Below, one piece after another: positions 2,619 through 6,716 of a stretch of DNA of 16,347 nucleotides. This DNA comes from a virus (Duplodnaviria; Heunggongvirae; Uroviricota; Caudoviricetes), in IMG/VR virus record IMGVR_UViG_2529292905_000024; one strand, written 5' to 3'. Made by a program: the position numbers and the translations under genes. The notes under the pieces were generated by a model. The model searched no databases and was not told the origin of the DNA. It saw only the letters and a list, made by a program, of their open reading frames with translations. Positions within the stretch are counted from its first letter, which is position 1, and each line of letters starts with the position of its first letter.

Positions 2619-3332
2619 TCAATAATCAAGCCCTTGCCTGGATACATATCTGTCTGGCGGGAAGCCATAATAGCGGTGAAATACAGAAATAAAGTAGGAC
2701 CAGCTTGAATAACCGCATTTTTCTGCTACAGCCTGTCCATATCCATGCCGGGAACATAACATATTGACAGCAACACGCATCCGCTCTTCCAGCAACAAGC
2801 GACTGAACATGTGCCCTTCATTTTTCAGTTTTATCTTTAACAAACTCTCACTCATATGCAGGCGTAACGCAATCGCACCAAGCGTCCAGCTTGCTGATAT
2901 ATCTGTCTGAATTATCGCCCTGACTTTGGCACTTATACTGGATAAACATCCACTTAAAAATAATAATATCCGTTCATCTGATTCAAACAGCGACAGGCAT
3001 ACCATCATAAGAAACATATCCGTGGTATCTCCGGAAAATCTCTGGCTGGTAATTAAAGCCTCAGCCAACGCAGGGTTGTTGGGTTCCAGTGACAGATAAA
3101 GCGGAACGTCAGTCAGATGAGTTCTTGTCAGCTTATGCTGAATTTCCAGATATTGACTTACTATGGAATGGTTTATATCGAAAATTTTAACTTTGCCATA
3201 ATGCATAAGGAAAAGCGCCCTGATGCATTTGGTGGCCAGAACGACTGAGCCGGGCTTAAGTGACAACGTATCCTTTTCAAGAAAAATATTAATTGGGGAG
3301 CAAACCATGATAACTGAACAGACAACAACCAT
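2619..3332 (-). CDS. AraC/XylS-family transcriptional regulator
   Basis: 237-aa ORF in visibly AT-rich DNA; C-terminal double-HTH signature (SESLLKIKLKNEGHMFSRLLLEERMRVAVNML...GYSSWSYFISVFHRYYGFPPDRY). Exact start uncertain. Confidence 0.8.
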   Translation of the reverse strand: MVVVCSVIMVCSPINIFLEKDTLSLKPGSVVLATKCIRALFLMHYGKVKIFDINHSIVSQYLEIQHKLTRTHLTDVPLYLSLEPNNPALAEALITSQRFSGDTTDMFLMMVCLSLFESDERILLFLSGCLSSISAKVRAIIQTDISASWTLGAIALRLHMSESLLKIKLKNEGHMFSRLLLEERMRVAVNMLCSRHGYGQAVAEKCGYSSWSYFISVFHRYYGFPPDRYVSRQGLDY

Positions 3333-3426: not shown

Positions 3427-3666
3427 CTAACACCCACCAGCCGCCCATTTACCACAAATAAAAAAGCCTTCAGGACTGAAGGCGTCTGTAACAACCGAAC
3501 TGATAGTCTGCCAGACCCGCATAACCAGCAGGGTCAGTATTAACTGGCAGCGCTCGCGTGAAAGGTACGTATTCTGCGCAATCTCCCCAACCGTCGCCGG
3601 TTCGGTGACGCTTAATTCATCAAACACAACTCTGGCGGTTTCTGTCATATCCTGCTGTTTCAGCAT
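3427..3666 (-). CDS. Hypothetical small protein (79 aa), possible winged-helix DNA-binding protein
   Basis: ORF with a plausible SD (aaggg) upstream of the ATG at 3666; its last 16 codons are encoded by the terminator hairpin at 3456-3483, so the true 3' end is doubtful. No family recognised. Confidence 0.3.
   Translation of the reverse strand: MLKQQDMTETARVVFDELSVTEPATVGEIAQNTYLSRERCQLILTLLVMRVWQTISSVVTDAFSPEGFFICGKWAAGGC
3456..3483 (-). terminator. Intrinsic terminator
   Basis: Minus-strand hairpin gccuucag-NNN-cugaaggc (8-bp stem, 3-nt loop) followed by a U-run (plus-strand aaataaaaaa at 3456-3465). Confidence 0.6.
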
Positions 3667-3789
3667 GTCTTTTTACCCTTTCCGGTTAACGTGACACACC
3701 AATAACTCTTGTCGAAAAAGCCAGCAAGCTGAAAGACCTGTATTAATAACTACCAGCACATTTAACGCACTGCGCTACTTTGCGGGCAC

Positions 3790-3812
3790 AAAAAACCCGC
3801 TCAGAGGCGGGG
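3790..3812 (-). terminator. Intrinsic terminator-like hairpin downstream of the CPBP gene
   Basis: Plus-strand aaaaaacccgctcagaggcgggg: minus-strand stem cccgc/gcggg followed by U6. Confidence 0.45.
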
Positions 3813-3952
3813 TCAAGCTATGCGGCGAAATAACCACTCTTAACAGCATACCTGATTTTTTACGTACGTAAATGCTTTGCCGTGCATATTTTTCATGCAA
3901 ATGTCACGTCCTGCTATTTTTCAGTCTTATAAATTTAAAACCATAGAAAAAA

Positions 3953-4660
3953 TCAATTATGTTTTAAAAATGGATAGGTAAAGAATAACAAGTGACACAG
4001 ATTCAAACCAAAATGGAAAAGGGTGGCAACCCACAAACGCCCACTCCACATCCATGACAATCCATACACAACACCAGATAACGTGGCAAATAATACAAGT
4101 AAAGCACCACCTGAATAGTGAAAAAAACCAAACAACAAAGCCGCCACAATTAATGCAACCAATGGAGACGTTACTTCTGATAGCCGTGATTGAATATACC
4201 CTCTAAATAATAATTCCTCTGCCAGAGACACAAAAAACAAATTAGCCAATATAAACTCTGGCAACCACTCAGGAAAATGAATCTCTGGCTTTAATCCACC
4301 AAAAAAAACAGCCAAAAACAGGATAAGAGGAACAGAGAGCGACAGAGCCCCCCACTTCCACAAAGACACTTCTGATTTTACTTCTTTTTTAAACAAAGAA
4401 GATGTACACAGGACTAACAAAAATGGCACCAGCGCTTTATCAAAATTAAAATACATTGTATAGGGAGTGCTTTGAGGGCCAACAGTAACAGAATTTAGCA
4501 CTACAGGATTGTGAAACCCTGGCCATAGATGGAAAGATAATGCTATGGCTGATAAAACCATGCCAACTTCATATATAGATTTAGCCCAGGCGTTATATTT
4601 CCAGTTGAACTTCAAAATAATAAAAAAACGATTGTAGCAACAAAAAATAACACCGACCAA
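3953..4660 (-). CDS. CPBP-family (Abi/CAAX-protease-like) intramembrane metalloprotease
   Basis: Multi-TM hydrophobic protein with the three CPBP motifs in order: EELLFRG, FGFFHY, LFHFGLN. Track start is TTG; first in-frame ATG is at 4561; the N-terminus may be supplied by the overlapping frame 4612-4770. Confidence 0.7.
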   Translation of the reverse strand: MVGVIFCCYNRFFIILKFNWKYNAWAKSIYEVGMVLSAIALSFHLWPGFHNPVVLNSVTVGPQSTPYTMYFNFDKALVPFLLVLCTSSLFKKEVKSEVSLWKWGALSLSVPLILFLAVFFGGLKPEIHFPEWLPEFILANLFFVSLAEELLFRGYIQSRLSEVTSPLVALIVAALLFGFFHYSGGALLVLFATLSGVVYGLSWMWSGRLWVATLFHFGLNLCHLLFFTYPFLKHN

Positions 4661-4770
4661 TCAATAATATCATTAAGCACAGCCAGGACAACAGACACCG
4701 TCAACAATGAAAAAGCCACTACCTTATGCCAACTGAGAGTTGACAGTGACAGTACTAACACAATCCACAT
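4612..4770 (-). CDS. Small hydrophobic ORF (52 aa), possibly the displaced N-terminus of the CPBP protease
   Basis: Strong SD aaggag 5 nt upstream of the ATG at 4770; translation MWIVLVLSLSTLSWHKVVAFSLLTVSVVLAVLNDIIDWSVLFFVATIVFLLF ends at a TGA straddling a T7 tract (plus-strand A7 at 4622-4628) and overlaps the CPBP frame. Confidence 0.4.
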   Translation of the reverse strand: MWIVLVLSLSTLSWHKVVAFSLLTVSVVLAVLNDIIDWSVLFFVATIVFLLF

Positions 4771-4801
4771 AAGCACTCCTTTTATTTAATGATGAAGATT
4801 G

Positions 4802-4830
4802 ATTATCAATATTTTCAATTCACCAGGCAA
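4802..4830 (-). promoter_or_regulatory. Candidate sigma70 promoter downstream of Q (possible pR'-equivalent or CPBP promoter)
   Basis: Minus-strand TTGCCT, 17-bp spacer, GATAAT, located between the Q stop and the SD of the 4770 ORF. Pattern match only. Confidence 0.25.
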
Positions 4831-4921
4831 CATTTTATCTACCTTCCACAATACATGACCATCAAAAAATAAACATGTTAATTATAAACGCAGAAAACAT
4901 AACCCTCATCACTATATATCC

Positions 4922-5293
4922 CTACCGCATATCCATATCTAACCGGACATTCAGAGCCATAAGCATTCCTTCAATAATACCTTCCGCTTTATAAAGCCTT
5001 TTACCAATAAGCCCATCAGAACATCTATGCTTACGTGCAAGAGCCATAAATGTCATTCCACCTACGTAATAATCCACCAACAAATCGTGCAAATACTGAT
5101 TATTCTTGTTTAATCGTGCCATACAACCACAAATTATCATGGCGTCATCATCAGAACACTGAGGACGTGATTTCACTTTAGTCGGGATTAATCCTTTAAA
5201 ACCAGCAGCTATCGAGGGCCATGTTACATCTTCATGATTATTTACTGCCCATGCCCCCCATCGCTCAAGAACCATCTGGATATCACGCGCCAT
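4922..5293 (-). CDS. Late-gene antiterminator Q (QuuD-like)
   Basis: 123 aa from the ATG at 5293 (SD gaggtgg upstream); [25 protein letters not shown]...[11 protein letters not shown] resembles E. coli DLP12 QuuD as recalled; sits directly after rusA as in lambdoid Nin regions. Confidence 0.8.
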
Positions 5294-5654
5294 CGTTACC
5301 ACCTCTGATTTCGTAAATCTTCACGCCCAGCCGTCCACCTGGCACAGGCTGACCGCGCACAATATTGATTTCATCAAACTGCTCGTCATCAATGAGCACT
5401 TCCGCATGCGTCAGCGCATCCAGCGGCGCTTTCAGAATATTGTCCAGGTCACGGCGGCGCTTATCCGGTGGTTCTGCAATAATTTTTATTGCCAGCCGTC
5501 CGGACAGGCTTAATTTCAGCCGCTGCTGGCGAACAATAAGCGCCACAGCCCGGCGATAACGCTCACCGGCTTTTGATACAAAATATGTGCTGCCACGACG
5601 TCGCCAGTAGGTGTTCACCGTCGGCGGGTAAGGCAAAACAAACTCTATACGCAT
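5283..5654 (-). CDS. rusA: RusA-family Holliday junction resolvase
   Basis: 123-aa ORF with SD agagg; the [29 protein letters not shown] region matches the RusA catalytic core; canonical position before Q. Confidence 0.85.
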
Positions 5655-5666
5655 CAGTAACCTCTT

Positions 5667-6716
5667 TTACCCGAGCACGCCGGTTGCAAAAGCGTGATCA
5701 AGAAAACGAAAAATTAAATCAACCTGGGAACCATGCTTTTCTTCGAACGCCAGCGGATCCGCATGAAGCTCGTTGTGATGCTCCCGACACAGCGGTAGCG
5801 TGAAAATATCGTGGGATTTTGTTCCCATTCCACCCTGACCATGACCAATCAGATGATGAGGATCGTCCGCTGGCTTACCACAACACGCACACGGCTGTGT
5901 CTTTACCCAGCGTGTGTATTTCTCATTTACCCAGCGGCGACGTTTAGGTCGTTTCATGAAAGATTCCGGAGACTCAGGATCAACGGCAATGCTGACCACC
6001 GTCTTTTCCTGTGGTGGGTTCTGTTGCTGGTGGGCGTGAGGCAGCGGCGCAAGATTTTTTGTGCGCTGTTTCAGTATGCTGGTGGCGGTCTGCTCTCCCG
6101 GTACGATGTCGCTTTCGCGGTACACCGAGCAGATTTTTTCCGCTGGTAATCCCAGCGAGCGACGTAATACCGCTTCCGGTAGCGCGTCCGCCAGCTGATT
6201 GCGGACCGCCCACCAGGATAATTCAGCCAGAGATAATTCACGCTCCTGCGTACCGCTTATTGCGTGACCGATGACGTCAATCATCCATGCTGACAGGTTT
6301 TGATGAGCAAGTTGCTCGAGTGATTCGGATGTCTGGTCACGCAGCTGGTTGTCGCAGTGCCAGCACAACACCATTGCGCCGGTACCATAACGGTGAATAA
6401 CGGTTTCACTGTGATGATAGTCACCATGAGGCCACTGGCAGGATTTGACATGACGCAACAGCCAGTCAGACAGTGCACCAGCGCCACCAACAGCACGAAT
6501 CACACGCTCATTGCTGAAAAACGGCAGTAATGATTTATCCTCCACCAGCGGCTGGCGAACAGTGGGAACCGCTCCGGATGGCAGCGCCCGCATGTTTTTC
6601 GGTTCCGGCTCAACCAGCACCCTGCTGTGATGAAAAACCGGCAGTGATTCGCGCCCGGGCTTAAGGACCACCAGCCCGAGTTCCGGTACCGGAACAGGTC
6701 GAAGTAATACCCGCAC
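5667..6716 (-). CDS. DUF968-family prophage protein (YdfU-like, HNH-like C-terminal motif)
   Basis: 349-aa ORF with GTG start 1 nt after the upstream stop and SD ggagg 5 nt upstream; C-terminal PCACCGKPADDPHHLIGHGQGG...CREHHNELH Cys/His cluster typical of DUF968 proteins in Nin regions. Confidence 0.7.
   Translation of the reverse strand: MRVLLRPVPVPELGLVVLKPGRESLPVFHHSRVLVEPEPKNMRALPSGAVPTVRQPLVEDKSLLPFFSNERVIRAVGGAGALSDWLLRHVKSCQWPHGDYHHSETVIHRYGTGAMVLCWHCDNQLRDQTSESLEQLAHQNLSAWMIDVIGHAISGTQERELSLAELSWWAVRNQLADALPEAVLRRSLGLPAEKICSVYRESDIVPGEQTATSILKQRTKNLAPLPHAHQQQNPPQEKTVVSIAVDPESPESFMKRPKRRRWVNEKYTRWVKTQPCACCGKPADDPHHLIGHGQGGMGTKSHDIFTLPLCREHHNELHADPLAFEEKHGSQVDLIFRFLDHAFATGVLG

Follow-up and report, generated by a model that had tools for sequence, protein, structure and literature searches.

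An apparently split CPBP protease gene in a prophage of Escherichia coli O55:H7 DEC5E very probably reflects a homopolymer undercall in a draft genome

A prophage-borne gene for a CPBP membrane protease appears as two overlapping reading frames in the 2012 draft genome of Escherichia coli O55:H7 strain DEC5E, and this split is very probably a sequencing artefact. The run of seven T residues at which the two frames part (positions 4622-4628, minus strand) is best read as a homopolymer undercall in that draft, the strain itself having eight T residues (T8) and one uninterrupted gene of 819 bp. The original prediction, made from the stretch of DNA analyzed here (16,347 nucleotides, hereafter the window), had offered four explanations for the split: a sequencing error in the homopolymer, a recent inactivating frameshift, slipped-strand phase variation, or a genuine arrangement of two ORFs. 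The first of these is borne out by an Illumina assembly of the same strain, in which the tract is T8 and the 819-bp gene is intact.

The gene in the 2012 draft and in later sequence of the strain

The window derives from contig AIFU01000013.1 of the 2012 DEC5E draft. This contig encodes EHV47978.1 (annotated "[Escherichia coli DEC5E]"), which is the window-specific 167-aa product with its unique S187L substitution, and across the 4.15 kb compared, the AIFU01000013.1 locus and the window do not differ. The gene, which encodes a CPBP (Rce1-like) intramembrane glutamic endopeptidase, occupies positions 3953-4770 on the minus strand and measures 818 nt in the window, as against 819 nt and 272 aa for the true gene (WP_171879524.1). 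A Shine-Dalgarno sequence (AGGAG, 4776-4780, minus strand) can be read five nt 5' of the true start codon (ATG, 4770-4768) and, as had been noted originally, the two open a hydrophobic ORF of 52 codons. This upstream ORF (4612-4770, minus strand), an artefact if the T7 run is an undercall, consists of the first 49 codons of the gene, followed by three codons that are out of frame and by a TGA. It had been described as ending inside the T7 run, whereas the stop (TGA, 4614-4612) actually lies eight nt past it.

The downstream frame (3953-4660, minus strand) is open from a TTG at 4660, through the T7 run, as far as the stop (3955-3953), in agreement with the original prediction. This frame contains all three catalytic motifs, EExxxR (4219-4202), FxxxH (4132-4118), and HxxxN (4015-4001), each of which is 3' of the shift. 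The two frames become one when a T is added to the run, again as predicted, although the resulting protein has 272 aa and not the roughly 267 aa that had been estimated. The run corresponds to codons 48-50, in the middle of a helix (residues 40-56) predicted by an AlphaFold model. Other homopolymers in the gene include a second T8 (4300-4307), a G6 (4347-4352), an A6 (4384-4389), and a T6 (4231-4236), and apparent frameshifts in this gene are frequent in databases, with one-base contractions at several of its runs in other assemblies.

The DEC5E genome was later closed with PacBio and Illumina reads and polished with Pilon (CP038383; 5,571,128 bp), and SRR15415543 is the Illumina run of the strain (PMC9413875, Table S1). 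When the missing T is restored, the 272-aa protein with the strain-specific L187 is that of QKB22561.1/WP_171879524.1 ("Escherichia coli O55:H7"), which sits on one contig of 5,571,128 bp, the same figure as for the polished DEC5E chromosome. The same repaired protein with L187 is also encoded in the Logan assembly of SRR15415543. In a direct alignment of window positions 3707-5320 with the SRR15415543 contig, all 1,614 of the 1,614 aligned bases are identical, and the strain-specific SNPs 5244T and 4212T are common to both. The sole differences are single-T contractions in the window at two sites, T7 vs T8 at 4622-4628 and T6 vs T7 at 4864-4869. The tract length in DEC5E is thus that of an assembled Illumina contig, and at this level the frameshift was not reproduced by independent sequencing of the strain.

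The second contraction falls in an intergenic T run between the antiterminator gene Q and the CPBP gene (4864-4869, minus strand), ∼240 nt from the first, and the two are accompanied by no substitutions relative to the Illumina assembly. Because this run is T7 in the same-strain Illumina assembly and in other O55:H7 genomes (T8 in DEC5A), the T6 of the window is taken as a second homopolymer undercall. A real mutation in the 2012 stock is unlikely, since it would need two independent slippages within 250 nt and no substitutions; the 2012 and 2021 runs of DEC5E may represent different sub-cultures. The pattern of differences is also what points to this error mode for the platform of the draft. 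Over 12.7 kb aligned with the complete genome of strain DEC5D, all three indels are one-base T-run contractions in the window. DEC5D also differs from the window by 14 SNPs and in an IS. At window positions 14012-14018, one contraction relative to DEC5D is found together with an adjacent T-to-C change (TTTTTC vs TTTTTTT).

One of the strain-specific SNPs alters the protein: a C-to-T change at window position 4212 produces S187L at the first x of EExxxR (AEESLFR to AEELLFR), a position that is occupied by Ala in most distant homologues. This substitution is real, as it is present in both the Illumina assembly and WP_171879524.1.

Tract length in other genomes and alternative explanations

The original prediction proposed a comparison of tract length across homologues, and this comparison places T8 as the near-universal state. 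The 951-bp region occurs once per genome in 571 of 5,426 complete E. coli genomes. An exact T8 88-mer is present in 529 of the 567 complete genomes that have the gene, and the sampled matches that are not exact have the same span of 88 bases, which makes them SNP variants with an unchanged tract length. The exact T7 87-mer occurs in a single one of the 567 (2013C-4465), and T9, T6, or other tract lengths were absent from the sampled matches of this set. With T8 in 529 and T7 in one, the tract is not polymorphic at appreciable frequency among close relatives. The six complete O55:H7 genomes that were fetched (DEC5A, DEC5D, CB9615, RM12579, TB182A, and USDA5905) have T8 and an intact 819-bp CDS, and the exact T7 87-mer is likewise absent from two more O55:H7 genomes, DEC5B and FDAARGOS_946.

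A real, recent frameshift would mean that the 2012 DEC5E stock and 2013C-4465 truly carry T7, with the protease truncated after helix 2 and the gene a pseudogene. We consider this very unlikely. Slippage does occur at T8 runs, the 2013C-4465 copy is a RefSeq pseudogene (NZ_CP015241.1, locus 5081-5898) that PGAP already labels "frameshifted," and the exact 52-aa product is found in 161 index blocks (∼100 contigs, from several lineages, as against at least 1,000 contigs for the commonest intact allele). However, the T8 of the DEC5E Illumina data contradicts an inactivating frameshift in that strain, as does the second, unique T-run contraction 240 nt away in the window with its lack of substitutions, and the one complete genome with T7 among the 567 is an unpolished PacBio assembly. 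The 2013C-4465 genome was assembled with HGAP3 from PacBio RSII reads, with no short-read polishing described (PMC4929515). It is the same as CB9615 over 6 kb except at the T run, and its T7 is probably also a sequencing error.

The other T7-bearing sequences also argue against a real frameshift. Ten T7 loci that were fetched represent at least three haplotypes (O55-type, O157-type, and O26/O111/O145-type), and over 4 kb each differs from a T8 reference by 0-3 SNPs. Because T7 appears on several haplotypes and its carriers have no exclusive SNP, it is homoplastic. An inherited T7 lineage within the O55-type haplotype was considered and rejected, as eight complete O55:H7 genomes have extra bases against the window query and as the three T7 carriers of the O55:H7 haplotype have no exclusive SNP in common. 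Multiple homopolymer contractions occur in the same gene of other T7-bearing assemblies: the two T8 runs of the gene are each T7 in the drafts AIFI01 and AIGH01 (accessions of the same series), and two further assemblies have three to five homopolymer contractions within the CPBP gene alone. In RM8385, the frameshift is at the G6 run instead, and the gene is annotated as a pseudogene by PGAP. Among the T7 calls that give the 52-aa product (∼100 contigs), some could be genuine slippage mutants. A broader version of this, in which both T8 runs (including that at 4300-4307) are real slippage hot spots of low frequency and some T7 contigs are genuine OFF variants, is very unlikely; if true, it would imply population-level heterogeneity of a prophage membrane protease function in STEC lysogens.

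Slipped-strand phase variation, in which the tract would act as a contingency switch for the prophage protease (T8 on, T7 off), is highly improbable. It would account for the homoplastic occurrence of T7 on at least three haplotype backgrounds, and the tract is near the start of the coding region, where known contingency genes also have theirs. The near-fixation of T8 among complete genomes nevertheless contradicts it: the tract length is essentially constant (substitutions, at an unchanged 88 bases, account for the sampled remainder), T9 and T6 alleles do not appear in the sampled matches, and T7 calls coincide with error-prone assemblies. In E. coli with proficient mismatch repair, eight bases is also a short tract for switching at a high rate, and the distant homologues have no homopolymer-dependent layout.

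Two genuine ORFs, or programmed -1 frameshifting or transcriptional slippage on U UUU UUA, can be given practically no credence: the T7 zero frame (GUU UUU UUA) does form a classic X XXY YYZ slippery site, in phase for a -1 shift to the frame of the protease that would yield a near-identical product with F50L, but neither the Illumina assembly of the strain, nor 566 of 567 complete genomes, nor any of the 23 aligned homologues has the out-of-frame layout. Since T7 is not the real sequence, the heptamer is a by-product of the error and frameshifting on it is moot. The internal ATG at 4561, proposed originally as an independent start for the protease, is likewise confined to the O55:H7-type allele and is ATA (Ile71) in the O157, O26, O111, O145, and O121 alleles. 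Among the homologues, which are single ORFs of 270-276 aa, an arrangement of two ORFs in which the protease has its own conserved start was not found.

An undercall of T8 in the DEC5E draft thus leaves nothing biologically unusual at this locus, which holds an ordinary prophage-borne CPBP/Rce1-like protease of uncharacterised role. It does carry a caution, as early drafts and unpolished long-read assemblies undercall T8 runs, and such undercalls lead to apparent split genes and to RefSeq "frameshifted" pseudogenes, probably including that of 2013C-4465. In scans for phase variation or programmed frameshifting, homopolymer shifts that are known from a single assembly should be discounted.

Prophage context

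The window is a lambdoid, Stx-phage-like prophage that is read on the minus strand, in the order repressor/cro region, SIR2-family gene, DUF968, and RusA (5283-5654, minus strand). The antiterminator Q (4922-5302, minus strand) is immediately upstream of the CPBP gene, and a small winged-helix gene (3427-3666, minus strand) is next after it, along with an AraC-type regulator (2619-3332, minus strand) and three tRNA genes (2341-2590). The nanS-p esterase (1-1851) and the lysis genes are also downstream of the CPBP gene. The position of the CPBP gene directly after Q suggests that it is expressed along with the late operon or at its head. A terminator-like GC hairpin, CCCGCCTCTGAGCGGG, followed by T6 (3796-3811, minus strand; located by consensus scan only), lies ∼140 nt 3' of the CPBP stop and is the first strong terminator-like hairpin after Q. 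More speculatively, a late promoter, if situated between Q and the CPBP gene, could transcribe the protease without Q-mediated read-through.

The winged-helix ("TrmB family") gene has a frameshift of its own. Relative to the O26/O111/O145/O121 version (198 bp, 65 aa), one G is missing near position 3520 (GTTATGGCGGG to GTTATGCGGG), and the window consequently has a 79-aa ORF with an altered C-terminus. PGAP marks this gene as "frameshifted" in the fetched O55:H7, O157:H7 SS52, and O103 RM8385 genomes, some of which are polished. As the site is outside any long homopolymer, the loss of the G is probably a real, ancestral frameshift.

Elsewhere in the prophage, an IS3-family transposase pair (window 14343-15556 and 16221-16310) adjoins a tRNA-Ser (cga) gene. 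In other O55:H7 genomes, just 92% of the window is matched, by two pieces that span ∼19.8 kb; a replacement or deletion associated with the IS thus appears to have occurred in DEC5E at the integrase/exonuclease end. The early region (minus strand) includes a SIR2-family protein (9908-10939) and an HTH + Peptidase_M78 (ImmA/IrrE-like) protein (7481-8587), which are possible defence or regulatory accessory genes.

The repaired protein and its relatives

The product of the intact gene would be a 272-aa polytopic membrane protein of the CPBP/Rce1-like intramembrane glutamic endopeptidase family, with an active site that would comprise E185 and E186 (EExxxR), H218 (FxxxH), and H253 (HxxxN). Residues 169-258 match PF02517 (Rce1-like; 72.2 bits, with a cut-off of 22.4) in Pfam, and glutamate-dependent protease activity is predicted on the basis of this family membership. 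A database search returned hundreds of homologues across Enterobacterales, nearly all of 270-276 aa and at 98-100% query coverage, from Escherichia, Salmonella, Enterobacter, Dickeya, Providencia, Pantoea, Photorhabdus, and other genera. In a 24-sequence alignment that spans many of these genera, E185, E186, R190, F214, H218, H253, and N257 are invariant. The N-terminal segment that is split off in the window is conserved as well (W2, L5, L9, L12, L23, and E68, of which the first five do not vary among full-length homologues of other genera), and all 23 aligned homologues are continuous across the T7 site, with no out-of-frame layout in any of them. The AlphaFold model, built from the same 24-sequence alignment, is one compact, all-helical bundle (pLDDT 94.1, pTM 0.90).

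A search of PDB sequence profiles with the repaired protein, a search of the literature for this prophage CPBP gene, and a comparison with the PADLOC anti-phage defence models (E ≤ 0.001) each returned no match. Megablast of the gene against a phage collection likewise gave zero matches, and the gene was seen only in prophages within genomes. A putative role in the lysogen might be the processing of, or immunity toward, a membrane-active peptide. The gene, which encodes a widespread prophage CPBP protease and lies beside antiterminator Q, is a reasonable target for functional study, without in itself pointing to new biology.

Among known sequences, the closest is WP_171879524.1/QKB22561.1, which is the window gene with the missing T restored (L187 included), such that the undercall is the sole difference. 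PGAP annotates an intact 819-bp CDS in O157, O26, O111, O145, O121, and O55:H7 genomes, and near-identical alleles (WP_000265268.1, WP_000265265.1, and WP_000265267.1) are encoded by O55, O157, O26, O111, O145, and O121 prophages in the same position, between Q and the tRNA cluster. At the level of phage protein families, the protein matches PHROG 13291, a family of unknown function, over its full length (positions 1-272 of 272, E 2e-180).

In a comparison of the model with solved structures, the three highest-ranking PDB fold matches (4CAD chains L and F, and 6U0O chain A) comprise all CPBP structures that have been solved, but their scores are weak (E 0.02-0.04, TM 0.36-0.49). The top match, the type II CAAX prenyl endopeptidase Rce1 of Methanococcus maripaludis (4CAD; E 0.02, TM 0.36), has PF02517 and the three motifs in common with the E. 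coli protein at ∼18% identity. Unlike Rce1, the enterobacterial family has four N-terminal helices specific to it, and no prenylated CAAX substrates are known in E. coli. The third match is SpdC (LyrA, lysostaphin resistance A) of Staphylococcus aureus (6U0O chain A; probability 0.99, TM 0.46-0.49), which belongs to the same superfamily and is 15% identical to the E. coli protein; "lysostaphin resistance A-like" is a name that PGAP sometimes gives to the gene. SpdC has lost catalytic residues and serves as a scaffold for the glucosaminidase SagB, whereas EExxxR, FxxxH, and HxxxN are all still present in the E. coli protein.
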